In this document: positions 9,108 through 27,433 of the stretch, piece by piece
Layout of the letters: every line of letters begins with the position of its first letter
Numbering within the stretch: the stretch's first letter is position 1
The notes under the pieces: generated by a model
Seen by the model: only the letters and a program-made list of their open reading frames with translations
Databases searched by the model: none
Told to the model about the DNA's origin: nothing
Position numbers and translations under genes: made by a program
From: Promethearchaeota archaeon
Lineage (GTDB): Archaea; Asgardarchaeota; Thorarchaeia; Thorarchaeales; Thorarchaeaceae
Length of the DNA stretch: 30,738 bases
Direction of reading: 5' to 3'
Assembly: GCA_014728035.1 (NCBI GenBank)
Contig: WJMJ01000125.1
Coordinates: 1-30,738, forward strand

Positions 9108-11612
9108 TTGGCGGAACAATCACGAATCGAACCGTTACCATCAAGTGTCCTAACATTCGCATATGAATTTGTTAGTAGAATGAGAAAACGAGATGATGTA
9201 CGAGTCAAACCGAGTGTCCGTCAAACACAATCGATTCCACAACTTGTTTCTGCCAAATTTTTCAGAAAAGGGAAGCTATCCCTTGATGACTTAGTTAACG
9301 CAGCAGTTTTTACAACATTTCCAATTGACCAAGAGATTGCAAGAGAGGTAGCAGAAGATATTCTTTTGGGGAAAAAGGATGAAATAGATATCGAGAAGAA
9401 GACAGAGAAGGAAAAACCGGGAGTATCAAAAAGTACTCATTTGGAAAGTGTAATTGATCAGATTCGAAGAGAACAGGAATTAGCAAAAACTATCCAGAAA
9501 GATAAGGTGCGTGAAGGGTACGAATATCTCATGGATATTCGAAAACACGAAGATAGATCGTTATATGACATGGCTCTAGAGTACTTGAATGATGGAGACA
9601 TTGTCTTACGAGGGATTTCTTCGGATGATATGTTAAGTGATGAAATTCGTTCGGAGATCAGCAAACGTATTGGAAACCTATCTCCAGAAGATATCCAAAA
9701 CGCTTCCGTATTAGATTATCTTGAAGAAATACTACTGAGTCAACGAGCTAATGAACGTCTTTCAGCACAGGCTCTTAGCGAAGATCAAGGATTTGACCAA
9801 GATTTTACAGAATTGCTTCGACATGATAGAGCAACTGGAGCAAAGACCCTAAGATTTCTCACAACAATGCAAGCATTCGACTCGCACAAACTAGAAGCAT
9901 TAGACATTGAGCTTCAGCAATCTTTAGAAAACTTGACTGAAGTTGCAGACTATTCTAAAGAAGTCGGAAAAACTCCAGAAGATATCGAGAAATTTGTAGA
10001 AGATGCACCACTGAAGTATCGATATGATGTGGCAATGGGTCTTGCAGAAAGTATCAAGAAGCAGAGCGGTGAAGATATCCGAGAAAGACTGACTGAAGCA
10101 TATAGGGACCAGTTTGACACTGGTGCTCGTGAAAATGTTGACCTACCACAACTTGCTGAGAAGGAAATCGATTCTCAAAGCTGGAAAGAGTTACTAGAAA
10201 AGCAAATAGATAGGATAATCGATGACTCAGATTGTCGGGCCTCGCCAGAACATCATCTACTGAAAGCTGCTGCTCAATCAAGTGATTTGAAAAAGGAAAT
10301 TGAATCTGCAGAAAATAAACGAGAATGGATGAAATCTATACAAAAGTTAGCAGATTCTAGTGTGGAGAGAGCTCAAACCAAAACAGAGTTACGTAATATT
10401 GTAAAGACTCTGAGAAGACACAATATAGAACCAACTCATGATATGATTCGTAAAACAGGTGAAAAACTTGGAATGTCAGAGGCAGAAATCCTCGAATTAC
10501 TAAATCCATCTTTTGAAGTAATTAAGAAATTAATCAATGAAGGATTGCAAGACTTCGATCGTCTTTATGGACTGATGTCTTCTGCTGGACTTACAAGCCA
10601 ACAGCTAAGAGAATTAGCTGATCTCGCGTATTCAAAAGGTAATCAATCAGCACTTGGAGCAGTGGCTCATGTTGACTTGAAAGCGGCTTTAGGGATGTCA
10701 GGAGGTAGAGGATATGGAAGTGGTGCTGGTGATGGGAGCAGTAGTGAACGGGAAGAAATGGTAGTTAGTGGTTTACATGGTGGTCCAGCAGCCAACATTG
10801 TAAAAATATGGTATACTTACCGAGACGAAATTCCTAGCGAACTGAAACAGAAATTGAAGAATATTGCTAAGAGATTATTGATTGACCTTGGACAGCGATT
10901 CTCACGGGCTACAATGGGTTCTTCAATGCTTGGTGGAATTCAGCAATCCACAACTGTTCGTCCTTTTAGAATTGGAGATGACATCGATCTCATTGAACTC
11001 GAAGAAACAATCGATTCTCTATTATCTCAAGGTCGAACAAATTTTGAAGTCCTAAATACCGAAGATTTTCTAATCTCAGAAACCTATCAAGGGCATCGAG
11101 CATATTTTTGGGCATTGGATAAATCCGGTTCAATGAATAGTCCAGATAAATTGGGTATGCTTGCGATTTCAGTGATGGCTGGGTTATACGGGGTCCAGAA
11201 AGACGATTTTGGTGTTGTTCTCTTTGATAACGTGACTCATGTTGTAAAACAAATACAGGATAGGTCCGTTTCTGTCGACAAAGTAGCGGCAGAACTATTA
11301 GATGTAAGAGCCTCTGGTGGGACGGGAGGACTCAACTCGATGAAAATGGCTCTGGATAATTTCACGCATACTAGGGCAAAAGAGAAAATATTCATCTTCA
11401 ACACGGACATGTATCTAAGTGATCAATCAGAGTGTGAAAAAGTAGCTGCAAAACTACATCAACAAGGAGTTAAAACCCTGATTCTCGTACCGGAAGTGGG
11501 AAGTAACATGTCAGCTGGTGATTCGCTGGCAAGAGCAGCTCATGGTGTAATCATTGCATTTGGTTCGATTGACGAACTTCCTGAAAAACTATTGAGGCTT
11601 ACTAACTACTAG
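9108..11612 (+). CDS. VWA-domain (MIDAS) partner of the MoxR ATPase, CoxE-like
   Basis: C-terminal VWA with DKSGS (DxSxS), GGT and NTD; long helical middle region; AAA-lid-like N-terminus. Confidence 0.85.
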   Translation: MAEQSRIEPLPSSVLTFAYEFVSRMRKRDDVRVKPSVRQTQSIPQLVSAKFFRKGKLSLDDLVNAAVFTTFPIDQEIAREVAEDILLGKKDEIDIEKKTEKEKPGVSKSTHLESVIDQIRREQELAKTIQKDKVREGYEYLMDIRKHEDRSLYDMALEYLNDGDIVLRGISSDDMLSDEIRSEISKRIGNLSPEDIQNASVLDYLEEILLSQRANERLSAQALSEDQGFDQDFTELLRHDRATGAKTLRFLTTMQAFDSHKLEALDIELQQSLENLTEVADYSKEVGKTPEDIEKFVEDAPLKYRYDVAMGLAESIKKQSGEDIRERLTEAYRDQFDTGARENVDLPQLAEKEIDSQSWKELLEKQIDRIIDDSDCRASPEHHLLKAAAQSSDLKKEIESAENKREWMKSIQKLADSSVERAQTKTELRNIVKTLRRHNIEPTHDMIRKTGEKLGMSEAEILELLNPSFEVIKKLINEGLQDFDRLYGLMSSAGLTSQQLRELADLAYSKGNQSALGAVAHVDLKAALGMSGGRGYGSGAGDGSSSEREEMVVSGLHGGPAANIVKIWYTYRDEIPSELKQKLKNIAKRLLIDLGQRFSRATMGSSMLGGIQQSTTVRPFRIGDDIDLIELEETIDSLLSQGRTNFEVLNTEDFLISETYQGHRAYFWALDKSGSMNSPDKLGMLAISVMAGLYGVQKDDFGVVLFDNVTHVVKQIQDRSVSVDKVAAELLDVRASGGTGGLNSMKMALDNFTHTRAKEKIFIFNTDMYLSDQSECEKVAAKLHQQGVKTLILVPEVGSNMSAGDSLARAAHGVIIAFGSIDELPEKLLRLTNY

Positions 11613-12360
11613 AATTATCTGAAACAAAACCCGTCCGATGGTCTAATGATTTTTCAGTGACTTCGGAAACCCACAATCTATACACACACGGATAATCTTT
11701 GAAACCGAGATTTAGATATCGTCTCCCAAATAGATAGAGCATAGCGCGCATGAATCTATAGAAAGGCTCTCCAGGAAAAATGACTTCAGCTATACAATTA
11801 AGTTGAAATCCAACATTTCGGGGTTGTTCTTTCCGGAACCAATGGAAGCTTAGAGTAACTCTACGGTCTCGAAGGATATTCTGATATGTTCTTCCTCCAT
11901 ACATCTCAACAACCCCCAAACGTAGTCGGTCTATCTTCTCTTCTTCTAGGAACAGATTCCTATACAGATCAATTCGTTCCTCCATGGATTCTTCAAAAGG
12001 CCGACTTACCACTGACAAAACGTCACCTTCGATTTTATCTATCCGTTTCTCTAGTTCTGAATCTGTTAGAGTCAGTCGTACTCGTTTTGCTGCACAGTTA
12101 ATGACAAAGGGAGATGTCTGAGAATAGGTACACAGGGTCGGTTTGTGTGCCATGGATTTGTAAATGTAAGAATAATCTGCAGTGTTTTCGTCATCAGAAG
12201 GTTCAGTGAGATTAAGAAGTTCTTTGTAGAGTGTATCAGGAATCGAATTTAGAGGATAAGAAGCGATGATTTTCTCAGATGCAAGCTCTATTCTTCTTCG
12301 TTCTCTGTCAATAAACTTGATTGTTGATTTCATATGTTTATTCAATGCAGCATACTCCAA
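11602..12360 (-). CDS. Putative pyridoxamine-5'-phosphate-oxidase-like (FMN-binding split-barrel) protein, paralog 2
   Basis: TYQNILRDRRVTLSF resembles the split-barrel 'NL..NPRVTL.F' motif; clear paralog of 12392..13108. Confidence 0.55.
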   Translation of the reverse strand: MEYAALNKHMKSTIKFIDRERRRIELASEKIIASYPLNSIPDTLYKELLNLTEPSDDENTADYSYIYKSMAHKPTLCTYSQTSPFVINCAAKRVRLTLTDSELEKRIDKIEGDVLSVVSRPFEESMEERIDLYRNLFLEEEKIDRLRLGVVEMYGGRTYQNILRDRRVTLSFHWFRKEQPRNVGFQLNCIAEVIFPGEPFYRFMRAMLYLFGRRYLNLGFKDYPCVYRLWVSEVTEKSLDHRTGFVSDNSSS

Positions 12361-12391: not shown

Positions 12392-13108
12392 CTATTCAGT
12401 AAAACCCGTCTTATCTGTTAACGTTTTCTCTTTTGTTTCAGAAATCCATAGTTTATATGCACAAATATACTCAGGTTTTCCAAGTTCAAGAAAAGTTGTT
12501 GAAAATAAAGTTCTAAGGATACGCATGAATTTGTAGAAAGGATCACTGGGAGGCACTATCTCAGCAATGCAATTGATATGATAAGCAAGAAATTCTTCTG
12601 TTTGAGGTCTATACCAACTGAAACAAAGAGTAACTCTTGGATCGTCTAAGATATTCGAGTATGTATTTGCACCATACATCTCAACAGCTCCAAATCTAAC
12701 TGGGTCAATTTCACTATGAGTCAGAAATAGTTCGTGATAGAGTTGATGTCTTTCCGATTGTGTGGTAGAATAGGAACGTCCTTGAAATGATAAGAACTTT
12801 CCTTCGAGTTCCTCAAGCCTGTCCTGGATTACTTCATCGCGAAGTGTAATTCGAGCGATTTTAGGAGCAACATTAATTATGAAGGGATGGGATACATTTC
12901 TTGTGCAGACAATTGGTTTATGAAGCATATTTCCCTCGATTAGCTTCTGTGCATTTACTGACTCTTCATCACTAAATGAGATGTTTAATAAATCATTAAG
13001 TAAATCATTGGGAATCGGACTAAGTGGGAATGAATGTTTCACTTCGCCACGAGTAAGGATAATTTTTCTACCTTCTCTATCAATGAACTGAGTAGTCTTA
13101 TGTGTCAC
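12392..13108 (-). CDS. Putative pyridoxamine-5'-phosphate-oxidase-like (FMN-binding split-barrel) protein, paralog 1
   Basis: INVAPK and TYSNILDDPRVTLCF motifs; GTG start. Confidence 0.55.
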   Translation of the reverse strand: MTHKTTQFIDREGRKIILTRGEVKHSFPLSPIPNDLLNDLLNISFSDEESVNAQKLIEGNMLHKPIVCTRNVSHPFIINVAPKIARITLRDEVIQDRLEELEGKFLSFQGRSYSTTQSERHQLYHELFLTHSEIDPVRFGAVEMYGANTYSNILDDPRVTLCFSWYRPQTEEFLAYHINCIAEIVPPSDPFYKFMRILRTLFSTTFLELGKPEYICAYKLWISETKEKTLTDKTGFTE

Positions 13109-13538: not shown

Positions 13539-13829
13539 ATGAAGGTTAGTAGACGTGCATATCTCGTTATGATAAACAATGTACGTCGAGGACTATTGAC
13601 TAGAACACAAATTCTTGACGCGCTAAGTGTCAGTGAATATAAGACCATTAGTGAAATATCTGAAGCAGTTCGAGTTACATCAAATACTATCCTTTACCAT
13701 TTGAAGAATATGGAACGTGAGAAAATAGTCAAGTACGATTCGGAAGGAAAAGGCTGGAAATTAATTAAACCAAATCAAATGCAACTCACTAAATTTATGA
13801 AAAGAAAGAGCCGAAGAAGCAATGACTAG
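13539..13829 (+). CDS. Winged helix-turn-helix protein (ArsR/TrmB-like) with C-terminal PIP-box-like motif
   Basis: TRTQILDAL..TISEISEAVRVTSNTILYHLKNMEREKIV; tail QMQLTKFM. Confidence 0.8.
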   Translation: MKVSRRAYLVMINNVRRGLLTRTQILDALSVSEYKTISEISEAVRVTSNTILYHLKNMEREKIVKYDSEGKGWKLIKPNQMQLTKFMKRKSRRSND

Positions 13830-17341: not shown

Positions 17342-18670
17342 TTATTTTTCATCCAATCTTTTCCACAGTTCTTTTGCTGACTGTTTTGAAATATCAGCTA
17401 CTTCTTGGTCCGAAATTCTTGTTATTTTCCTATCCTTCAACACTAATTCACCATCTATCATAACATCTCTTACATCACGTCCACTAAATGTGTTAACAAG
17501 ATGGCCAATCACAGAGGATGAGTTGACAGGGGTCGGAGATCGTGATGCATCAATAATTACAATGTCAGCTAGTTTCCCAACTTCGAGCGACCCAATCCTA
17601 TCTTCCAACCCATAACACTTTGCTCCCTCCAACGTTGCCATTTTAAAAACTGTATCTGGTTGCATTGCACTAGGATTCCGATATTCAAGACGATGCACAG
17701 TAAGAGCACAACGAATATTCTCAAAGGGGTCAAATATCCACCCATCATTTCCAAGCCCGACATTAATTCCCATTTTAAGCATTTTCAAGATGGGGGCGGT
17801 ACCAACAGCATTTAGCATATTGCTCATCGGATTATGAGCTACAGAAGTTCTTGTTTTCGCAATGAGCTCTAACTCGTTATCATTCACATGTACACAATGA
17901 GCAAGGATCGTATTTGATCCAAGTAAGCCCAACCTATCTAACCGTTCAACAGTTCGTTCTCCCCATCTTTCCAAATTGTGATAAAGGTCAACTAAGCCTT
18001 CTGATGTATGAATCGTTAGTGGCATACCTAGTTTCTTTGCTTCTGTTGCTGCTTTTACAACCAATTCGTCTTCAACAGTAAATGAAGCATGAAGACTCAT
18101 CATAGCTGATGTTAGTCCCGATAAGTCGTTACAGCGTTTTGCAAATTGGATATTCTCTTTGAGACCTCTTTCAGCTTCACCGGGATTGTTTCGTTCCGTC
18201 ATTTCAAATGCTAACAAAGACCTAATACCAATTTTCTCTGTTGACTTAGCAATAGCGTCTAAACTACCTTCAATGGAATTTGGTCCAGAATATGTATCAG
18301 CAAAGAAGGTAGATCCATTTCGAATCATATCTGCTGAAGCGGATAATGCACTTGCTTCAGCATCTTTGACTGTCAGCGCTTCATCCACAGGCCACCATAC
18401 TCGCTGCAACACTTGTGCAAAATCAGTTGGTGGTTCTATATTCAGGGTAGCCCCTCTCAACAGAATTCCATAAAGATGTGTATGAGCTGTGATAAGGCCA
18501 GGAATCGCGATACAACCTGATGCATCAATTATCAGGTCTGGTTTTTTCGATACCTCTCCAATCGCCGCAATTTTATTTCCTTCGATGAGAATCGATGCAT
18601 TTTCATGAATCTTATTCTGCTCATCAGCTGTTACAATCAAAGCATTCTTGATAAGTGTGCTTTCTGTCAT
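17342..18670 (-). CDS. Metal-dependent amidohydrolase, SsnA/MtaD (nucleoside/base deaminase)-like
   Basis: PGLITAHTHL, HASFT, IHTSEG, LAHCVH, HNPMSN, GLGNDG and GSLEVGKLAD. Substrate not determinable from sequence. Confidence 0.85.
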   Translation of the reverse strand: MTESTLIKNALIVTADEQNKIHENASILIEGNKIAAIGEVSKKPDLIIDASGCIAIPGLITAHTHLYGILLRGATLNIEPPTDFAQVLQRVWWPVDEALTVKDAEASALSASADMIRNGSTFFADTYSGPNSIEGSLDAIAKSTEKIGIRSLLAFEMTERNNPGEAERGLKENIQFAKRCNDLSGLTSAMMSLHASFTVEDELVVKAATEAKKLGMPLTIHTSEGLVDLYHNLERWGERTVERLDRLGLLGSNTILAHCVHVNDNELELIAKTRTSVAHNPMSNMLNAVGTAPILKMLKMGINVGLGNDGWIFDPFENIRCALTVHRLEYRNPSAMQPDTVFKMATLEGAKCYGLEDRIGSLEVGKLADIVIIDASRSPTPVNSSSVIGHLVNTFSGRDVRDVMIDGELVLKDRKITRISDQEVADISKQSAKELWKRLDEK

Positions 18671-18727
18671 TTGAGAGGCCTCAAGAAAAATAAGATGACA
18701 TGCTCTCAGATTAGTGTTTGCACTAAA

Positions 18728-20437
18728 TCATAATTCCATATCTACATATCTCACACTATCAGAGCCCGGACGATAGATGATACCTTCACGTTCTAATTCA
18801 ACAACAATATCTTCTACTTGCTCAGGTGATAGTTCCAAATCGTGAGCTTTTTCCTTAAGCATCTCAATCTTCACCTCGGTCAAGTCACGAGTTAAAATTT
18901 TGAGAAGTTCTAAAACTTTCTCAGATGGGGGTAGGGATATATCGATTTCACTGAGTTTCTTGGGATGAGTATCTCCGTTTGCTTTCTCTTCAGATGAAGA
19001 AGCAGCATCACGAGCAGATAGCAAAGCAGCAAGAAGACTCTTCTTATCACTAGCTTGTTCGGATTCGCCAGTCGTTCGCAGGTCGGATAAGCTAACTCCT
19101 TCAGGTTTAGAATCTTGTGAAGAATCAGTTCCTTCTTCAAAGACTGGAAATGGATCTTCATCTGAGAAATCAAAACCAAGCCATGAAGAATCAATATCTT
19201 TGTTTGATGGAGCGCCTTTCAAGAGATGCTCTCGATACTTCTTCTCGATCTTCTGCCTTTGTTTTTCGATATCAGACCCAATACAAGGTATATGTGCTAC
19301 TTGAAGTAAAACGCGTTGACCAGATCCGCGTACTCTTGTATGTGAATCGGTCAAAGCGTATTCAAGAATTCTCAGTAGCGGAGAGATTTTCGATTTTGTT
19401 ATGTCTATATTATCAATCAGAGATTGTTTTACACGCCAGTCCTCGTCTGCAATGACATCATTGACTATTCCAGAAGTGCTGGAGATTCCAGCCTTTCCAA
19501 CAGCTTTTGCAATCAATGTACGTTCATGCCAAGTTCCGTCCTTTAAGAAAACTGAAAGGTATCGTACTGTTTTTTTCTCTGTGATGCCACAAATATATTG
19601 CAAAATGTCACGCTTCTTGTCTGCGGCTTCTTTCACTAGTAATCTAATGAGTTTCCTTCGAGACTTGAGCGGGAAAGAAGCAAGACTCTGAATAGCACCA
19701 AGAGGAAAAGTTTCAACATTTCCTGTAATTCGTTCTTTGACCCACTTATAACCTGCATTGCCAAATTTGGCCATTATTCCAACAACAGTAGCCTCATGTT
19801 CTCTCCCAAGCGATTCAAGTGATGAGATCCAATTTTTTCGCTCACTGTTCGACTGAGGAGGCCCGACAGCACTAAACATCTCATCAATAACCTGAAGAAC
19901 CTGTTCACGTTCTGCGGGATTAATCTCATCCATCCGCTTGAATAAATCCTCAGTGTAAACACCAAAAACGTTCTTTCCGGCCATTCTGAATAATGAACGT
20001 TTCAAAGTTGGATCTGCTGTATCAAGAAGATCCATTGCTTTTGGTAAGAGACTCCTTGAATAATCATAGACATTCATTTTGCCAGCCGCAGTATACATCA
20101 TTTTAGGGTCAGCAGCATCCAGAGAGAGTGAGAATCTTCGTATTTCGCTCAGCTTTTTCTGTTCCAATTTTTGAAGGTCGGTCAATTCTTTTCTTTCTTT
20201 TTTTGTCCTAGTTGTTTTTGGTTTTCTCTTCGATTTGGAACTTTCAGATAATTTTTTAGCAGCTTTTACAATTTTCTTTGCTGTTGCGGATCCTACCCCG
20301 TCAACTGATTCAGCAAGCTTCTTGGGTTCAGCTTCAGAGAGTTTTTCTACAGAATCAATACCTTCTGACTTCAACTTCTTCTTGAGTGCCGGTCCTATAC
20401 CAGATATGTCACTTAGGTCCATCTCTTTTTTACTCAA
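18728..20437 (-). CDS. HhH + HEAT-repeat + C-terminal winged-helix protein
   Basis: LSDISGIGPALKKKL and VDGVGSATAKKI (two HhH). HEAT-like DGTWHERTLIAKAVG, DEDWRVKQ and DSHTRVR. Tail EQVEDIVVELEREGIIYRP resembles MCM/RPA C-terminal WH. Confidence 0.75.
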   Translation of the reverse strand: MSKKEMDLSDISGIGPALKKKLKSEGIDSVEKLSEAEPKKLAESVDGVGSATAKKIVKAAKKLSESSKSKRKPKTTRTKKERKELTDLQKLEQKKLSEIRRFSLSLDAADPKMMYTAAGKMNVYDYSRSLLPKAMDLLDTADPTLKRSLFRMAGKNVFGVYTEDLFKRMDEINPAEREQVLQVIDEMFSAVGPPQSNSERKNWISSLESLGREHEATVVGIMAKFGNAGYKWVKERITGNVETFPLGAIQSLASFPLKSRRKLIRLLVKEAADKKRDILQYICGITEKKTVRYLSVFLKDGTWHERTLIAKAVGKAGISSTSGIVNDVIADEDWRVKQSLIDNIDITKSKISPLLRILEYALTDSHTRVRGSGQRVLLQVAHIPCIGSDIEKQRQKIEKKYREHLLKGAPSNKDIDSSWLGFDFSDEDPFPVFEEGTDSSQDSKPEGVSLSDLRTTGESEQASDKKSLLAALLSARDAASSSEEKANGDTHPKKLSEIDISLPPSEKVLELLKILTRDLTEVKIEMLKEKAHDLELSPEQVEDIVVELEREGIIYRPGSDSVRYVDMEL

Positions 20438-20521
20438 GAAACAACGCTCCTTATTGATTCATTCTTCCCTCTAGTAGTGTGTTAATTCTTTCTCATCTTA
20501 TTTCTTCTTCGGTGATTACTA

Positions 20522-21298
20522 CTATTCATCGCTATCGTCATCCGAAACAGGTTCACCATCTAATGTCAATTGTTGTGTTTCCTGTATATCAGGCAACGTT
20601 TCTACATCAAGTTCAAGTTCTACAAGCATGTGTTCATATTTTTCTAGAATCTCTTTTGCAATTGGATCTGAAGCCTTGACCTTCACTCTAGTCACTTCAA
20701 GGTCTCTCAACAGCAGCTTTCCATATTTTGAACGTAAAAGCTTGCTCAATGAATATTCTCCATCTTTTTCTACAGGAAAGGCATCCTTAAATTTTTCAAT
20801 TCGTTTATCTTTTAATTTCGGAGTCAAATATCCAAAACCATCTCGTTTCAGACCCGATTCCGTAAGAAAATCAATATCGCCTTTTTCAATCATCGTGTTG
20901 ACTATTTTAGCACAATGATTTCTAACCTCACGCCGACCATCCTTGAAAGATTTTTCTTTGCAAAGAATCGTCAATATATCTTCTGTAGGAAGGTCAAGTG
21001 CTAAACTGAATGAGAGAATATCAAGAGAAGCAAATATTCCATCTCTAAATAAGATTAAAGCACCTGAAAGGTCATATTCTTGATTTTCTTTCTCCCAGTA
21101 CTTGTCAATAACTTTGTAAATCCTATGAAGAGGGTATTGCTTCTTATCCGACCAATAACCTTCCATAGTTGTCTGAAAACCAGCAATATCTCCTCTTTTG
21201 CTCCTCTCATATAGCTCTAGGGCAAATTTCGACTTTTTGGTTTTCTTTTTAGACAGGTTAATCATCCTCCGAACTGCTGATACAGTCTTAATGCACAT
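20522..21298 (-). CDS. Hypothetical protein, homologous to the N-terminal domain of 26057..27433
   Basis: 258-aa ORF (true start probably near 21265) with shared blocks described in the findings; acidic tail containing QQLTLDG. Confidence 0.75.
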   Translation of the reverse strand: MCIKTVSAVRRMINLSKKKTKKSKFALELYERSKRGDIAGFQTTMEGYWSDKKQYPLHRIYKVIDKYWEKENQEYDLSGALILFRDGIFASLDILSFSLALDLPTEDILTILCKEKSFKDGRREVRNHCAKIVNTMIEKGDIDFLTESGLKRDGFGYLTPKLKDKRIEKFKDAFPVEKDGEYSLSKLLRSKYGKLLLRDLEVTRVKVKASDPIAKEILEKYEHMLVELELDVETLPDIQETQQLTLDGEPVSDDDSDE

Positions 21299-21367
21299 TC
21301 ATTTATCATAGGTTGTATTGCTCAGGTAAATAAACCAATGTGCTACGGAATATTTAAGAAAAAGAGA

Positions 21368-21387
21368 GAGAACCCCTGGGGGTTCTC
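21368..21387 (-). terminator. GC hairpin followed by T-rich tract after the 827-aa surface protein gene
   Basis: GAGAACCC-CTGG-GGGTTCTC; on the minus strand it is followed by TCTCTTTTTCTT. Confidence 0.6.
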
Positions 21388-21403
21388 AAAATGTTTTCAA
21401 TTA

Positions 21404-23887
21404 TTATTTTCTTTTCTTGGCAATAATTGCGATAATTATCACAACACCGAGAATAGCAATAATAATCAACAACGTATTCAAATCAATTGGGAATTCTGAT
21501 GTGGGTGACGGATTCACAACAACAATAACTGAATCAGTTGCTTCATATCCAGCAATATCAAAGACAGTTATTTCAACGATATGAGTCCCGACCTCGAGAC
21601 TATCAAGATTGAATTCTACCTGTCCTCCATTCCAAATCTCATCAACCGTACTACTACCATTAAGTGTAATCGAGTAGGTACCAGGAGAGTTACCTGTTGG
21701 ATTCCAGATTAGGCTATTACCTGTTTCTCCAGAAGTAAATTCTACATCTGATGGGCTATCAATATGAATCCGCATTAAATATGCCAATTGATTAACCCAT
21801 ATCTCATAGGCATCGGTGTATCCTGAATCATCAGCATCTCCCTGAAGGTAATCTTGTAGATACGAATTGTATAATGTTCTACCATTGTTACCTATCAATA
21901 GAGTTGTTTCGTTTTCTTGTTGACTAGCGCTATGACCAGCAATTGCTACTCCATCGATAACGTGGAGCAAATCACCTTTATCAGCGAAAAATCCAAGCTC
22001 ATCAAAAGTTGTTGTTTCAAACTCAAATGGTTTATTGAATATTGGATGACTTTCATCCCAGATATAAAGGGGATCACTTGATAAAATATCATTTGCATAT
22101 GCAAATCCAAGAGTTTCCCATAGCGGATGTTCAGGTGCTGAATCTACGTTATAATATGACATCAATAAATGCCCCCCATTAATAACGTAGTCATTAGTCA
22201 AATTCAGAATCGATTCTGGGAGAGAAAAGTTTGGCGCTTCGACAATGACCAAATCCCAATCTTGTTGTTGGAATGATAGGTTATATGCACCGGATGTGGT
22301 AACAAGCTCGAAACTTACCCCAAATTCATTGATTGCACGGACACAATAACTTGTGTAATAGTTAGGTACTGCATAATTAGTAAATACAAGAATATTTGCA
22401 TCAGCTGCCGTAAGCCAACCGACCGATTCGATTGCAAGGTGGATATTGTTGACAGTGGTTAGACGGACGTCGTCAACCCAGTTCATATCGGCACCAACAA
22501 TAATTCTTCCATTTCCAATTTCTTGAGCAGCATAAACTGCACTGCCGTTCAATGTTGCTAAAGGTTCCGCAGTTCCTGTTAAATTCAAGTATCCAAAAGT
22601 AGCAAATTCAACGGTAACTGCATTTTCAGTAGCTAAATGTGGTGTGATATTGACTTGGTGAGTACCTGATACATCAATATCTGAGGCGATTTGAATGTCG
22701 GTGAAGCTCAATAGCTGATTAAGCTGGTCATGCGGGATTATAAATGAAGAAAATATGTTCGATTCACCCAATACCCACAAAGAACCCCCATCGTTTACAT
22801 AGTCTTCAACAGCAGTTCTCTCAGAGGCGGTGTAGTTAAGGTCTGGGCATATCTCAATTATTAGGTCGAATACTTCAAGTCGATTTAAGGTTAGATTTCC
22901 TGAAGAAGAAGGATATAACTTCTCTACAGTATAATCGAGAGCAACAAGAGTATCTCTAAGAGGTTCATAGAAACCTGGAAATGTTGTAAATTCATCATCC
23001 CAGTCATCAATTCCTAATCTTGGTTGATGAGTATAATCAAATGCAATTCTGGCCTTCGGTCTGGGGCAAAGCCAATTTATCGAATCTTCTACCAATTCAG
23101 TCATATCACCTGGAAAAATCTCCATATCACCGGGTATCTGAACCACTCGTCCACCACCTCGATTTAATGGATCCATAGCTAGAATTGAAACCCAATCGAC
23201 TGTAGAAAGAGGTGAACCGAGATAGGTAAAATCAGCATGATTAAGCAATGCATTAAGAACGGTCGTATTGAAAGCACCCCAGGAGATACCTCCTCCGGAT
23301 GTTGTATTGATTTGGTCATTAACCGCATAGCTTTGTGTTACAGGATGTAATTCGTCAATGACATGCAATGGTTGACTAATATAAGTCCAAACATCATCAT
23401 ACAGTTCATCTCCTACATAAGTATCAGAGATTATCCCAGAATACACAAGATATCCTATGACACTATCAACACTTAGAATAGATCCTCCGCCAAGCCAATA
23501 CTCTTTGACTAGATTCACAGTATTCTCTCGTGGCAAGACATCAGGAATTACAAACACGTCATAAGCTGAAGGTTGCAATTCATGATTTAGGATATCATCA
23601 TTATCAACTAAAGTTATACTAAATCCAAGGTTTTGAAGTACAGTGTACATAGCACTATAATTTGCTTGGTCGGCAATAGAAATGTAACTTGGTTTTGTCG
23701 AATTCAGTTCACTATAAAGCGCGACCCTAACATCTCTCTCAATTTGAGATGAAATAAAAGGATTATCAGGGCGTGCTGATATTTCTGTTATTTGTTTATT
23801 TTTTGATATCGATTGGTTGGAAACCATGGGTGCAACCATGGTGCAAACCAAAATTGTAATCGCGAATAGAGAAACAATTCTTTTCAT
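21404..23887 (-). CDS. Large surface protein: three GATase-like/GIFT (GldG/IFT52, DUF4350-like) domains, Ig-like domain, C-terminal TM anchor
   Basis: Signal peptide. Three repeats of a 'D(L/V)hhh..Y..GGxhh' pattern (YWLGGGSIL, YVNDGGSLW, YVINGGHLL). LEVGTHIVEITVFD is Ig-like. TM helix plus KKRK tail. Confidence 0.75.
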   Translation of the reverse strand: MKRIVSLFAITILVCTMVAPMVSNQSISKNKQITEISARPDNPFISSQIERDVRVALYSELNSTKPSYISIADQANYSAMYTVLQNLGFSITLVDNDDILNHELQPSAYDVFVIPDVLPRENTVNLVKEYWLGGGSILSVDSVIGYLVYSGIISDTYVGDELYDDVWTYISQPLHVIDELHPVTQSYAVNDQINTTSGGGISWGAFNTTVLNALLNHADFTYLGSPLSTVDWVSILAMDPLNRGGGRVVQIPGDMEIFPGDMTELVEDSINWLCPRPKARIAFDYTHQPRLGIDDWDDEFTTFPGFYEPLRDTLVALDYTVEKLYPSSSGNLTLNRLEVFDLIIEICPDLNYTASERTAVEDYVNDGGSLWVLGESNIFSSFIIPHDQLNQLLSFTDIQIASDIDVSGTHQVNITPHLATENAVTVEFATFGYLNLTGTAEPLATLNGSAVYAAQEIGNGRIIVGADMNWVDDVRLTTVNNIHLAIESVGWLTAADANILVFTNYAVPNYYTSYCVRAINEFGVSFELVTTSGAYNLSFQQQDWDLVIVEAPNFSLPESILNLTNDYVINGGHLLMSYYNVDSAPEHPLWETLGFAYANDILSSDPLYIWDESHPIFNKPFEFETTTFDELGFFADKGDLLHVIDGVAIAGHSASQQENETTLLIGNNGRTLYNSYLQDYLQGDADDSGYTDAYEIWVNQLAYLMRIHIDSPSDVEFTSGETGNSLIWNPTGNSPGTYSITLNGSSTVDEIWNGGQVEFNLDSLEVGTHIVEITVFDIAGYEATDSVIVVVNPSPTSEFPIDLNTLLIIIAILGVVIIIAIIAKKRK

Positions 23888-23963
23888 GTCTCCACCTTAA
23901 CTGATTGTTAGAATAATTACTGATAAATCTAACGAACTTATTGAGATGAAAATAGGCAGAGAT

Positions 23964-24575
23964 TTATCTTTTCAAAGCTTCTTCTACTTCCTTTTTCTCT
24001 TTCTGTAGCTCTCTGCTCTCTCTAATTAATCTAGTAAGAGAACTTCGATAATAATCCTCAGATATTTTCTTTCTTGAAAAATCTCTTTCCAAAGCATCAC
24101 GTTCTCGCTTAAGTTGAACCAGACGACTTTCAACTGATCGTTTTTTTACTATTAGCATCACTCGTTTTCTTTCTGGAGGTGTTCCATCAGGCACTAGGGA
24201 GGGAGGTTCAGATTTTAAGTCAATTCCTGCTTCTCTAAGCTCACGTTTTGCAGGACTGACCAAACGATTTGGATCTTTCCTTGCACCATATGTTGGTTTC
24301 ATAGTAGATTTCTTTGAAGGATGTTTAGAAATACTCTCAGTTTTTTTCTTTGGGATATCTTTGCTTCTTATCACTTTGTCCCGCGTCTTGTGAGATTTTG
24401 AAGTTACAGATTTTGGTTCTCGCCCCCTGATAGATTCAGAGGAATCTTTACTACTACTGGCTTCAGACATATCCTTCATACAACATTTCAGAATCCTACC
24501 CTCATTTTTTGCTAACTTAGCAAGATATGCTTTGTATCTCTTAAGACGTTCTTGCGGTGTAAGATCATCTGACAT
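23964..24575 (-). CDS. Basic low-complexity protein with C-terminal coiled coil (SHOCT-like)
   Basis: Lys/Ser-rich middle region; LERDFSRKKISEDYYRSSLTRL helical hairpin. Confidence 0.7.
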   Translation of the reverse strand: MSDDLTPQERLKRYKAYLAKLAKNEGRILKCCMKDMSEASSSKDSSESIRGREPKSVTSKSHKTRDKVIRSKDIPKKKTESISKHPSKKSTMKPTYGARKDPNRLVSPAKRELREAGIDLKSEPPSLVPDGTPPERKRVMLIVKKRSVESRLVQLKRERDALERDFSRKKISEDYYRSSLTRLIRESRELQKEKKEVEEALKR

Positions 24576-24752
24576 GTATCACTCACGGTCCATCAATTGC
24601 TATTTCCACCTAGAAGAAAGAGTGGATAGAATCCCCTTGAAGATCTAACATCTAATCTGGATAATCTTTTATTAAGAGTATTCTGCGCAAGTGAATCAGT
24701 TGCTTTCCATTTTTTGGTATTATTTGTTTTTAATATACAGTTTTCAATTCTA

Positions 24753-25307
24753 TTAGGTCATGGAACCAGGATCTAGAGAGAATAATCGTCGAATTAGATT
24801 TCCAACACTTAGACTTGCCAGGAAATACCAAGGCCAGAAGTAGAGACCAAAACCGGAACCTGGTACATTTGTACCTAGCCAACCTTCAAGAAATGGAAGT
24901 GCATCTTGTGGATTAAATGGAAGGATTGCTACGGGTTGTAGACCATAGAGGCCTGAAAGAAAATAATAGATAGCCAAAAAAGGAAGATAGAATATTAACA
25001 TTGGTTTGCAGCGAGAACCCATCATTTCAGTCTGTATTCTTAGAATTCTTTGCTGTTCAGCCATGACCTCTTCAAGTAGAATAGGATCCATGGTTTTTCT
25101 TGCTTCATTATACTTGTTTCTCCATTCTTTCACTTGTTCCATCTTTTCTTGCATTTCTTCAAGATCAGTGAGTTTTGCAGTAATAATAGAAGAAACGAGA
25201 GCCAAAGCCATTCCAACAATAATGACAAAAAGTGCAGAAAAGGGCATTGTAGTGATTAGTGACAAACCATCTGTGATGCTTTGTGCCAGAGATGAAAAGA
25301 GGTCCAT
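24753..25307 (-). CDS. EMC3/TMCO1 (DUF106, Oxa1 superfamily) membrane protein insertase
   Basis: TM1, cytosolic coiled coil, KPML..LPFL and FWPWYFLASL motifs. ATG at 25307 preferred over 25325. Confidence 0.85.
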   Translation of the reverse strand: MDLFSSLAQSITDGLSLITTMPFSALFVIIVGMALALVSSIITAKLTDLEEMQEKMEQVKEWRNKYNEARKTMDPILLEEVMAEQQRILRIQTEMMGSRCKPMLIFYLPFLAIYYFLSGLYGLQPVAILPFNPQDALPFLEGWLGTNVPGSGFGLYFWPWYFLASLSVGNLIRRLFSLDPGSMT

Positions 25308-25407
25308 ATAACATCCACTATTCACAATGGCAATAATTGTGGGTATTAAGCATTATCTTTTGTGTTTTTTATGATCTAGACTTCTTTTTTCAAGTTCCTC
25401 TTCATCA

Positions 25408-25660
25408 GTAAACGTTTGAGAGTTAGCTGATGTTTTAGCTGATTGGTACTAGTAAACGCTTATCGATTCGCGCCACGTTAGTATTACTGTAATAATATCT
25501 CAGTGTTACAAAATTATTGAGATTGTAAAATCAAGCTAAATGGTTGTGTTTTGTGCAATATTGGACAGATATATTTCCTTTTTGTGTAGTATCAATCCTT
25601 CCCTTAAAACAAACGTTTACTCTGTCAGACCTATAGGGTTTATATTGGAGTAACGTTTAC
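25408..25660. promoter_or_regulatory. Four GTAAACG(T/C) sites plus a TTTATAT box in a divergent promoter region
   Basis: Sites at 25408 and 25452 (+) and at 25612-25620 and 25652-25660 (-). The last two flank TTTATAT at 25639-25645. Confidence 0.6.
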
Positions 25661-25694
25661 TTTCATTAGTCAGCCGCCGGGAGGCAGACAACAT

Positions 25695-25964
25695 ATGATG
25701 ATGTTCAAGCGAATGTTAAGAAGACAGGGTTTTTACCGTGTCAAAAACCAAGATGAGCCAGTCTACATGAAGCACAATGTAGGTATAGGTGGAATGTATG
25801 TTACTATTGCAAAGAAGAAAGCTCAGATTCGAGTTAGAGATCTTTCAATTGATGAAGAATTTTCCAGGGTTAAAAGACTAGAAGATTTCATCGTTGAATT
25901 GGAGGATGAAGCATATCAAAAGAAATGCGTAATAGTTAACAAGATGCGAGGAACTGGTTCCTGA
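25695..25964 (+). CDS. Small hypothetical protein
   Basis: 89 aa with GGAGG RBS, upstream TATA box and downstream hairpin. Confidence 0.75.
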   Translation: MMMFKRMLRRQGFYRVKNQDEPVYMKHNVGIGGMYVTIAKKKAQIRVRDLSIDEEFSRVKRLEDFIVELEDEAYQKKCVIVNKMRGTGS

Positions 25965-26002
25965 GCATTGGAATTGGACGGAGACAGAAAAAGAAGAGAG
26001 AT

Positions 26003-26029
26003 TGTAGGTAACCGCTATGGGCACCTACA
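26003..26029 (+). terminator. Hairpin after the 89-aa gene
   Basis: TGTAGGT/ACCTACA stem followed by a pyrimidine-rich tract. Confidence 0.4.
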
Positions 26030-26056
26030 TTAGTCTCCTCCTATTCTTATTTTCTG

Positions 26057-27433
26057 ATGATATTGAAGAAATTAGAATATTTTTTGAAACATGTCTATAT
26101 ACAAGATTACGTTCGCAGCTCTACAGTATTACAAGAGGTCTTCAAGACAAATCTTGTAGAAGAATTTTCGCTGGAATTGCAGAATAGATACAAGCAATTT
26201 GAACAGACATTATCAATTCGAAATCATGTTGCATTCTTTCTCAATATGACACCTGCATATTTTGCCCTGAAACTACCTTCGCATGAAATCTTATCATTAG
26301 TTGACAGACAAGCACAAGACATACCTTTAGAATCCATAATCCTAAATTGTATTCACGAGTATCTCACACATGATGAAGACATAGTTTCTACCTGTAATTT
26401 TGATATCACATTATTAAGCAGTACACAATACGCTCGACTTGTTCCAGATTTAATCTTGAAACGAATGGACAAATTACGCAATTGCAAAATTCCATTTATA
26501 GAAAAATCCAATGCTGAGAGAACAATCTATGGTATCAGTGATTTTACGAGAACATCTTTTGGTAGACGGATACTATTAGCTCTAGAAATATCTCCAACAT
26601 CTGTATCAATTTCCAAGAAAAACTGGATTCGTATCGCTAAAGCTCTTGAATCATTAGAGATTCAACCAGATGAAATGCTTATCGAAAAGACACAAGATGA
26701 ATGGTTTCAATATTTAGATACACTTTCAGAAAGAAAAGAACCGATTTTCGAGGAGTGTGTTACTCTTAATCACACATATGATCAAATCACATTACTTGAA
26801 TCCCCAAATCAGAATATCAGACTAAAAGCATTGGAAAATCTTGAACATATTGAATGCATAGGACATATGTATCAAATGAGAAAAATTGTTGCCGAGGGAA
26901 GTATTAAACAACAACAGAAAGCTATCTCTATCATAGCTTTGACAGGTCTTCCATGGGTTGCAAATTATCTAACAAAATTACTACAAACTGGGAGAGGAGA
27001 AATAAGAAAAGCAGCAGCGAAGGCATTATCTGAATATTCATCTAAATCATTTACCAAAGGAATAAGAGACCTATCAAGTCAAAAAGAACAACTAGTGAAA
27101 GTTGGATTATTCTATTCACTATATGGGAAAGAATTGAATTTGGAAAGATTAGATTTTCTAGCAAGTCATAAGAATCCTCTAGTCAGATTAGAGGTGACCA
27201 AATCTGTGACATCAAGTGCGGTGAAAGAATTCAAACCAATTATTCGTAAACTCTTACTTGATAAAGAACGAAGAATCAGATTACAACTGGCTGAACAAAT
27301 TCATTCTATGGAGGAGGAAAATGCAAGAATGGCAATTGAAACTCTTCAACATGATCCAGATATTGAAGTTAGAGAAACTGCATTAAAGAATGCAGAGAAA
27401 CGTTGGAGAGAAGAGGAGGGTCTCAGCAGGTAA
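26057..27433 (+). CDS. HEAT-repeat protein with uncharacterised N-terminal domain
   Basis: SPNQNIRLKALENL, GEIRKAAAKAL, KNPLVRLEVT, DKERRIRLQLA and DPDIEVRETA HEAT-like repeats. Confidence 0.8.
   Translation: MILKKLEYFLKHVYIQDYVRSSTVLQEVFKTNLVEEFSLELQNRYKQFEQTLSIRNHVAFFLNMTPAYFALKLPSHEILSLVDRQAQDIPLESIILNCIHEYLTHDEDIVSTCNFDITLLSSTQYARLVPDLILKRMDKLRNCKIPFIEKSNAERTIYGISDFTRTSFGRRILLALEISPTSVSISKKNWIRIAKALESLEIQPDEMLIEKTQDEWFQYLDTLSERKEPIFEECVTLNHTYDQITLLESPNQNIRLKALENLEHIECIGHMYQMRKIVAEGSIKQQQKAISIIALTGLPWVANYLTKLLQTGRGEIRKAAAKALSEYSSKSFTKGIRDLSSQKEQLVKVGLFYSLYGKELNLERLDFLASHKNPLVRLEVTKSVTSSAVKEFKPIIRKLLLDKERRIRLQLAEQIHSMEEENARMAIETLQHDPDIEVRETALKNAEKRWREEEGLSR

Follow-up and report, generated by a model that had tools for sequence, protein, structure and literature searches.

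An orphan domain paired with and fused to HEAT repeats in Thorarchaeota: a candidate two-subunit complex tethered to DNA or PCNA

What brings a protein domain of no recognised family together with HEAT repeats twice within a few kilobases, once as a separate gene and once by fusion? The question is raised by the Thorarchaeota contig WJMJ01000125.1, analysed here over a window of 30,738 nucleotides. The first-pass annotation had proposed that two open reading frames share this domain, that it works with a HEAT scaffold and that its role lies with DNA or chromosomes. Both reading frames are present in the window, as follows:

20522..21298, minus strand: P0001 (designated A), 258 aa, stand-alone orphan-domain protein ending soon after a T-x-Q-x-T-L-x-G motif
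20600..21226, minus strand: orphan domain of P0001, residues 25-233 (hhalign; AlphaFold2 pLDDT 94)
20555..20578, minus strand: T-x-Q-x-T-L-x-G motif C-terminal to the domain (residues 241-248), kept in every orthologue
26057..27433, plus strand: P0002, 458 aa, orphan domain (residues 6-214) with HEAT repeats immediately after it (about 244-449)
26072..26698, plus strand: orphan domain copy of P0002 (BLASTP, hhalign)

Orphan domain common to P0001 and P0002

The presence of a common domain in P0001 and the N-terminal half of P0002 is supported in agreement by BLASTP (26% identity over 140 columns, E 4e-6), by shuffling (Smith-Waterman score of 81 against 38.7 +/- 5.7 for shuffled sequences, z 7.5, with 0 of 2000 shuffles scoring as high) and by hhalign. 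The latter compared alignments of orthologues, A1 with 20 P0001-type and A2 with 11 P0002-type sequences, and gave a probability of 97.2% and E 4.7e-11 over 194 columns (P0001 27-229, P0002 7-212). The BLASTP alignment pairs residues 84-210 of P0001 with 54-186 of P0002, spanning in order the three blocks noticed at first pass; the extent of the hhalign match indicates that the unit common to both proteins is the entire domain of about 200 aa rather than these blocks. Residues R85 and G193 are invariant in both subfamilies.

The models predicted by AlphaFold2 for P0002 (pLDDT 83.8, pTM 0.81) and for the P0001 domain agree in the order of their helices and short strands. In P0001 the domain is predicted to be mainly helical, with a short helix-strand-helix-helix-strand segment. 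The predicted fold is a high-confidence model, conserved throughout one Thorarchaeota family. The domain had been described as unrecognised, and so it proved: no family or fold match was obtained in Pfam, NCBIfam, PADLOC, a PDB sequence search, Foldseek, VIA-align or the ESM Atlas, and the full P0002 model returned only generic HEAT/ARM matches in fold searches. No earlier description of the domain, or of the gene pair considered below, was found in the literature.

The A-B gene pair, its modules and its fused paralogue

P0001 is located directly upstream of, and co-oriented with, the HhH-HEAT-WH gene P0003 (designated B), as first annotated, with a gap of 84 nt between the two genes. The features of P0003 and of the next gene downstream are the following:

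18728..20437, minus strand: P0003 (B), 569 aa, comprising HhH2, basic linker, HEAT solenoid, acidic linker and C-terminal winged helix
20252..20419, minus strand: HhH2 module of RadA-N type, residues 7-62, with a Lys/Arg-rich linker after it (Pfam HHH_5)
19238..20140, minus strand: HEAT solenoid core of P0003, alphaRep/PBS-lyase type, about residues 100-400
18731..18949, minus strand: C-terminal winged helix of P0003, probably of MCM C-terminal type, residues 497-569
17342..18670, minus strand: SsnA-like amidohydrolase, co-oriented downstream neighbour of the pair in 17 of 18 loci

The HhH2 module matches HHH_5 over residues 7-62 with 50.7 bits (Pfam cut-off 27) and the RadA N-terminus of NCBIfam with E 2e-9, while over the HEAT region, recognisable at profile level, P0003 matches alphaRep chains with E 4e-8. 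The P0003 orthologue profile matches the MCM winged helix 2m45 (E 2.8e-4) and residues 625-688 of 4fdg; the score of this winged helix against Pfam MCM_WH_arc, 16.7 bits, is below the cut-off of 26.1. Searched against the same genome, it has its top non-self match in the C-terminal part of the MCM gene, and in other Asgard genomes P0003 finds only winged-helix matches, located in MCM-sized ORFs. The acidic linker of B carries conserved short motifs.

The linkage to a HEAT gene, first noticed at this locus, recurs elsewhere: A-like and HEAT-WH B-like genes adjoin in all 52 Thorarchaeota species loci having both. The stop codon of one and the start codon of the other mostly overlap; in 25 loci the overlap is 4 nt, and in 41 the junction lies between -8 and +3 nt. 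The order A then B, adjacent and co-oriented, was found in 18/18 loci. Both genes are single-copy and family-wide. A word-indexed protein search yielded only two homologues of P0001, and the remainder were recovered by exhaustive profile search. The domain profile is found in all 43 f1 genomes, with A orthologues as its full-length stand-alone matches, and B is present in 40 of the 43; no B orthologue was found in the 157 other Asgard genomes searched. The pair is restricted to one Thorarchaeota family and so does not represent a general archaeal system. One same-genus genome, 97% complete, contains neither gene, which means either that the pair is dispensable or that this block is missing from its assembly. 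Across at least 15 genera the orthologues are only 36-45% identical, yet the genes remain adjacent, with the 4-nt overlaps, the invariant motifs and the PIP box described below also kept while flanking genes vary. The amidohydrolase is a metabolic rather than a replication gene, and no functional link between it and the pair is evident. No WD40 gene is conserved beside the pair in the 18 loci.

A tail resembling a clamp motif had been noted at first pass. The candidate in P0001, QLTLDG, is invariant but was rejected as a clamp motif, since it has no aromatic pair and the real PIP box of the orthologues sits downstream. Residues T241, Q243 and G248 of the T-x-Q-x-T-L-x-G motif are invariant among orthologues, and the motif may act as a partner-docking strand. 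Of 52 P0001 orthologues, 48 have a PIP box, Q-x-x-L-[TSA]-[DE]-[FY]-[ILVM], in their tail, 20-50 residues short of the C-terminus and ahead of a K/R-rich tail. The P0001 of the window lacks both the PIP box and the basic tail, and no Q-x-x-[LIMV]-x-x-[FYW]-[FYWLIVM] motif occurs in the tails of its P0001, P0002 or P0003, so that no claim of tethering to PCNA can be made for this genome. Assembly error as the reason for the short P0001 was rejected in view of P0005, a protein 72% identical and encoded on a separate 157-kb contig, which ends identically. PCNA is encoded in this genome, and the strict PIP motif occurs seven times among its 4246 ORFs, in five cases at the extreme C-terminus; these C-terminal cases include FEN1, the DP2 subunit of PolD, and PolB.

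The proposed role on DNA gains support from the PIP box and basic tail of the A orthologues and from the HhH2 module. The placement of this module is lineage-specific: it is N-terminal in B of the window and C-terminal in A of the three genomes of genus g12. As read from the sequences, such swapping between two adjoining genes argues for joint action of their products.

P0002 corresponds collinearly to P0001 plus P0003, because profile comparison matches its C-terminal half to the HEAT core of P0003 (hhalign probability 93.7%, E 2e-7), with the reservation that repeat similarity alone can yield HEAT-HEAT matches. A direct BLASTP comparison of P0002 with P0003 was not significant (E 0.083), leaving the profile comparison as the sole support for this link. 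The split/fused pattern is real and stronger than originally claimed, since it extends to the HEAT half. Residues 365-444 of P0002 match HEAT_2 above the Pfam cut-off, and the predicted pTM over the entire chain fits a rigid arrangement of the domain and the HEAT repeats. P0002 contains no PIP box, DNA-binding tail or winged helix. Both halves and the overall length are retained among its orthologues, which are 20-26% identical. Long A-type fusions (630-2000 aa) were looked for and not found, which is weak evidence.

Proposed complex and competing explanations

On balance, we lean towards regarding the A-B pair as a Thorarchaeota-specific two-subunit complex, a HEAT scaffold tethered to DNA or PCNA. 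The pair is probably an uncharacterised accessory complex of DNA replication or repair; from the features listed above we infer binding of A to B, binding to PCNA and DNA, and action at sites of replication or repair. In this model, the orphan domain of A would dock on the HEAT solenoid of B, and P0002 would be a paralogue carrying both modules in a single chain. In most Thorarchaeota, the PIP box and basic tail of A, on a flexible C-terminal arm, would tether the complex to PCNA-loaded DNA, while B would supply the HEAT scaffold, the acidic linker and an MCM-type winged helix recruiting or competing for a replisome partner. In the lineage of the window, A would have lost the PIP box and basic tail, and the HhH2 module with the basic linker at the N-terminus of B may bind DNA instead.

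The suggestion that the domain works with a HEAT scaffold holds in part: its pairing and fusion with HEAT are real, but it is not HEAT-specific. It belongs to an Asgard family that has undergone expansion: among 16 members in the genome of the window, 11 are LRR-N-terminal fusions and three are HEAT fusions, so the orphan domain may not be a dedicated HEAT-binding module. Family expansion, reaching about 10 members in relatives, together with fusions to LRR, HEAT and WD40+LRR arrays in proteins of Thor- and Lokiarchaeota, would also fit a homotypic or adaptor module, acting in the manner of Death-like or effector-associated domains. The copies on P0001, P0002 and the LRR fusions would then bind each other, joining repeat sensors (LRR, HEAT, WD40) in a signalling or conflict network in which the HEAT linkage is incidental. 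A weak match to a NACHT-associated domain in one LRR-fused member and the location of the fused paralogue 3-10 kb from the A-B pair in at least 12 genomes point the same way. We nevertheless consider this explanation, taken as a whole, unlikely. No STAND or other NTPase and no effector domain was present in any family member scanned, PADLOC assigned no defence family to P0001, P0003 or six paralogues (P0002 matched only a generic HEAT-ARM model, E 2.4e-5), and most paralogues retain just the C-terminal two thirds of the domain. Moreover, A and B form a syntenic, single-copy pair throughout the family, and the A orthologues carry replication-type PIP boxes.

It is similarly doubtful that the orphan domain does the work itself, either as a divergent winged-helix-like nucleic-acid binder or as an enzyme, with the HEAT and LRR regions as regulatory or targeting appendages and with A and B perhaps co-expressed without forming a stable complex. 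The predicted helix-strand-helix-helix-strand order of its C-terminal module is reminiscent of wHTH, P0001 has a basic putative recognition helix, and the many invariant polar residues of the A orthologues, K52, R85, R126, D153 and E229, are consistent with such an activity.

Rather improbable is the proposal that A-B represents a Thorarchaeota-specific, PCNA-coupled chromatin or fork-accessory factor like a split CAF-1, and that the orphan domain is a general plug docking Asgard LRR, HEAT and WD40 proteins on HEAT scaffolds. Here a HEAT scaffold would bear the PIP box, a DNA anchor of either basic or HhH type, an acidic linker for client binding and the terminal winged helix. If this is true, the archaea most closely related to eukaryotes would possess a new class of adaptor domain that ties receptors built of repeats to the replication machinery.

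Finally, a pattern without functional meaning, with P0002 a diverged duplicate fused by chance and the A-B adjacency due to shared ancestry rather than selection, is very improbable: the pair-bearing genomes all belong to one family and so are not independent, and one genome lacks the pair, but the conservation of adjacency, overlaps, motifs and PIP box at the divergence given above amid varying flanks, and the retention of both halves in P0002 orthologues, speak against it.

The orphan domain is distinguished by three marks: linkage of its gene to a scaffold with HEAT repeats and an MCM-like winged helix, a clamp motif of the FEN1/polymerase type in orthologues, and a large family of LRR, HEAT and WD40 fusions. 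Confirmation of the two-subunit complex would provide a new type of PCNA client for archaeal replication and a new adaptor domain among the repeat-protein architectures expanded in Asgard archaea. The natural variants offer ready constructs for its dissection: PIP box with basic tail, PIP box and HhH2 both on A, HhH2 on B with the PIP box absent, and the fully fused paralogue. If the complex is not confirmed, a well-delimited new domain family for databases remains.

Comparison with known systems

The A orthologues share with the archaeal PIP-box clients of PCNA (FEN1, PolB, PolD DP2 and RNase HII) the pattern Q-x-x-L-T-D/E-F/Y-hydrophobic on a disordered C-terminal arm. In the genome of the window, this motif reads QSSLTDFF in FEN1, QTALTDYF in PolD DP2 and QPQLTEFM in PolB. 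Unlike these clients, A has the orphan domain as its folded part, with no catalytic signature, and the motif of its orthologues precedes a basic tail instead of occupying the extreme C-terminus; in P0001 of the window it has been lost.

The large subunit of CAF-1 (Cac1/Pcf1/p150) comprises a PIP motif, a basic KER DNA-binding segment, a disordered acidic region and, at the C-terminus, a winged helix (PMC10942606). By analogy, an equivalent set of modules may be seen in the Thorarchaeota pair, divided between A and B. The likeness is one of analogy only, as the pair has a HEAT scaffold and the orphan domain where CAF-1 has WD40 subunits, and no CAF-1 family or chain was among the Pfam or PDB sequence matches for A1, A2 and A3.

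The repeats of P0002 and P0003 are of the same type as those of archaeal PBS-lyase/alphaRep-type HEAT proteins (Mth187 family). Whereas the latter are plain repeat arrays, the Thorarchaeota arrays have the orphan domain either ahead of them in the same chain or as a separate partner, and that of B continues into the acidic linker and the MCM-like winged helix.

In the eukaryotic Timeless-Tipin, HAWK-kleisin and Nse5-Nse6 complexes, a scaffold of the HEAT/ARM type is associated with a small, mainly helical partner and carries DNA-binding and replisome-docking appendages. The A-B pair appears similar in layout to these complexes of an alpha-solenoid with a small obligate partner.

The orphan domain and its family

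Three genes of the window carry the argument:

20522..21298, minus strand: P0001, 258 aa, stand-alone orphan domain
18728..20437, minus strand: P0003, 569 aa, HhH2-HEAT-winged-helix partner of P0001
26057..27433, plus strand: P0002, 458 aa, orphan domain fused to HEAT repeats

Relatives of the window genes are found almost solely in Candidatus Thorarchaeota (Asgard archaea). Orthologues of P0001, P0002 and P0003 were gathered from related genomes and aligned (alignments A1, A2 and A3, respectively).

The three collinear blocks that the first-pass annotation had noticed in P0001 and P0002 are real. A BLASTP alignment of residues 84-210 with residues 54-186 (26% identity, E 4e-6) spans all three in order, and the Smith-Waterman score of 81 withstood shuffling, being reached in 0/2000 shuffles (mean 38.7, sd 5.7). 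Profile-profile comparison of the two families aligned P0001 27-229 with P0002 7-212 (97.2% probability, E 4.7e-11, 194 columns); judged from these alignments, the two proteins have a whole domain of about 200 residues in common. AlphaFold2 models of the P0001 domain (pLDDT 94, 29 sequences) and of P0002 (pLDDT 83.8, pTM 0.81, 11 sequences) have the same order of helices and short strands. As initially suspected, the domain is an orphan: nothing in Pfam, NCBIfam or PADLOC matches it, its profile finds nothing below E 0.69 among PDB sequences, an ESM Atlas search returned no usable neighbour, and a literature search found neither the domain nor the P0001/P0003 pair described.

The family goes well beyond what the original finding implies. 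When 1.84 billion representative proteins were searched exhaustively with the profile, 268 scored E 1e-3 or better. Some 64 of them reach E 1e-30 or better, either as stand-alone proteins (about 280-340 aa) or as HEAT fusions (about 440-505 aa); a long tail of matches covers just profile positions of about 77-205. Those sampled from the tail are mainly leucine-rich repeat (LRR) proteins with the module C-terminal, together with a Lokiarchaeota WD40+LRR protein and some HEAT proteins. In a second Asgard family (f9; L135-L137 in genomes G113, G133 and G188), the module lies at the very end of conserved proteins of ~790 aa, the remainder of which has no Pfam match. The window genome encodes 16 members: P0001, three HEAT proteins, P0002 included, with the domain N-terminal to HEAT, 11 proteins in which the LRR precedes the domain, and a last one that matches nothing in Pfam. 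The paralogues share the core motifs F-L-D-x-E, R-x-x-E-I-E and D-L-x-P-L-x-x-T-x-Y-G. Across P0001-type and P0002-type proteins, R85 and G193 are the sole invariant residues. The proposed linkage of the domain to HEAT is not exclusive: 11 of the 16 members are LRR-fused, and three are HEAT-fused.

These partners bear on a less likely rival reading, in which the domain would be a homotypic adaptor joining repeat sensors. In another, also less likely, the domain would be the working part itself, nucleic-acid-binding or catalytic.

The gene pair and its single-chain counterpart

A P0001-like gene followed by a co-oriented P0003-like gene was found by tblastn with the window proteins in 18/18 loci from 17 genomes, and an SsnA-like amidohydrolase gene comes next in 17 of these. 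The P0003 profile located 61 species-representative loci; 52 of these contain both genes, which are adjacent in 52/52, although the genomes with the pair are all kin and the counts are not independent. The two genes overlap by 4 nt in 25 of the 52 loci, and in 41 the distance at the junction is between -8 and +3 nt. The orphan domain profile finds matches in 43/43 genomes of the window's family, the full-length stand-alone matches being P0001 orthologues, and P0003 is single-copy in 40/43. The expected co-occurrence therefore holds for the pair but does not extend across Asgard archaea: no P0003 orthologue was found among 157 other Asgard genomes searched, and matches outside the family are only to its winged helix, in MCM-sized ORFs. 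A reading of the whole pattern as historical accident, the least likely of the rivals, would have to accommodate the conserved adjacency.

One other genome of the same genus (G001, 97% complete) is without P0001 and P0003 orthologues. For the SsnA-like amidohydrolase (block at window 17342-21298), the closest match in G001 reaches 35% identity, compared with 59-71% in other genera. This genome may lack the block; alternatively, given the size (4.3 Mb) and contamination (8.5%) of the window's metagenome-assembled genome (97.9% complete), the window's contig, C96, may stem from another Thorarchaeote binned together with it.

P0002 extends the comparison to HEAT repeats. In profile comparison, its HEAT half (244-449) matches the P0003 HEAT core (135-380) with 93.7% probability and E 2e-7, with the caveat that HEAT repeats can match each other generically; direct pairwise comparison of P0002 and P0003 was not significant (E 0.083). 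With that caveat, P0002 is collinear with P0001 followed by the P0003 core, which upholds the split/fused pattern. P0002 orthologues (441-504 aa) keep their length and both halves at just 20-26% identity. In at least 12 genomes, spread over several genera, they are found 3-10 kb away from the pair. The whole-chain pTM suggests a domain-HEAT interface.

Several neighbouring genes were also recorded. The 89-aa protein directly 5' of P0002 (25695-25964, plus strand) is 65-76% identical across Thorarchaeota, far above the conservation of its neighbours, and has no match in Pfam or NCBIfam. An 827-aa protein (21404-23887, minus strand) with an N-terminal signal or anchor, a C-terminal transmembrane helix and only weak GIFT / ABC_transp_aux-like matches stands between the pair and P0002 here, and adjoins the pair in some relatives only. 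The adjacent genes 11602-12360 and 12392-13108 (both minus strand) are paralogous, one having a weak PNPOx-like match; both match one and the same gene in most related loci, indicating a tandem duplication specific to the window lineage.

PIP box and predicted DNA anchor

After the domain, P0001 orthologues carry an invariant T-x-Q-x-T-L-x-G, a variable acidic stretch, the motif Q-x-x-L-[TSA]-[DE]-[FY]-[ILVM], conserved in the tail of 48/52, and a K/R-rich tail. Among 4246 ORFs of at least 100 aa in the window genome, which also encodes PCNA, the strict form of the motif occurs just 7 times. Five of these lie at the very C-terminus of their proteins: FEN1 (QSSLTDFF), PolD DP2 (QTALTDYF), PolB (QPQLTEFM) and the following two proteins:

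G000:C103:27350-28240 (L112): DUF2797 protein, ending QTGLSEFV
G000:C16:9990-10514 (L110): C39-like peptidase, ending QPKITEFI

This rarity and the position at the ends of FEN1, PolD DP2 and PolB identify the motif as this organism's form of the PIP box, and make the DUF2797 protein and the peptidase candidate unrecognised PCNA clients. A 96-aa ArsR-type wHTH protein (13539-13829, plus strand), whose synteny is conserved in many Thorarchaeota loci, has QMQLTKFM near its end, followed by a basic tail; this sequence fits the strict form of FEN1, PolB and PolD.

The clamp motif is present in the orthologues but missing from P0001 of the window, which has neither PIP box nor basic tail and ends right after T-x-Q-x-T-L-x-G. 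Assembly error was ruled out by an independent protein, 72% identical, with the same end, so the short form is a real lineage state.

P0003 begins with a RadA-N-type HhH2 (residues 7-62; Pfam, NCBIfam) and a Lys/Arg-rich linker, followed by a HEAT solenoid of alphaRep/PBS type, an acidic linker in which short motifs are conserved, and a C-terminal winged helix closest to that of MCM (2m45, E 2.8e-4). In its own genome, the best non-self match of the winged-helix profile is the C-terminus of an intein-containing MCM gene. Inteins or LAGLIDADG insertions occur in MCM, the PolD large subunit and PolB of this genome (C9:162530-166171, C25:40709-44980, C161:23412-28400).

The HhH is absent at the pair locus in most orthologues. 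In the three genomes of genus g12, the P0001 orthologue ends in PIP + HhH2 and the P0003 gene abuts it, while in the window HhH2 and basic linker form the N-terminus of P0003. A predicted non-specific DNA anchor, basic tail or HhH2, is thus always encoded at the junction, in either product, as expected if the two work as one particle.

Proposed assembly and nearest analogue

The best reading is that P0001 and P0003 form a two-subunit HEAT scaffold complex, tethered to DNA and, in most lineages, to PCNA, and that P0002 is a paralogue representing the same complex as a single chain. P0001 would bind P0003, the anchor would bind DNA and the PIP box PCNA, probably in a replisome context. Homology with the CAF-1 large subunit is not detectable. 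By architecture, the pair's nearest analogue is this protein, which combines a KER DNA-binding helix, a PIP, an acidic ED region and a C-terminal WHD (PMC10942606).
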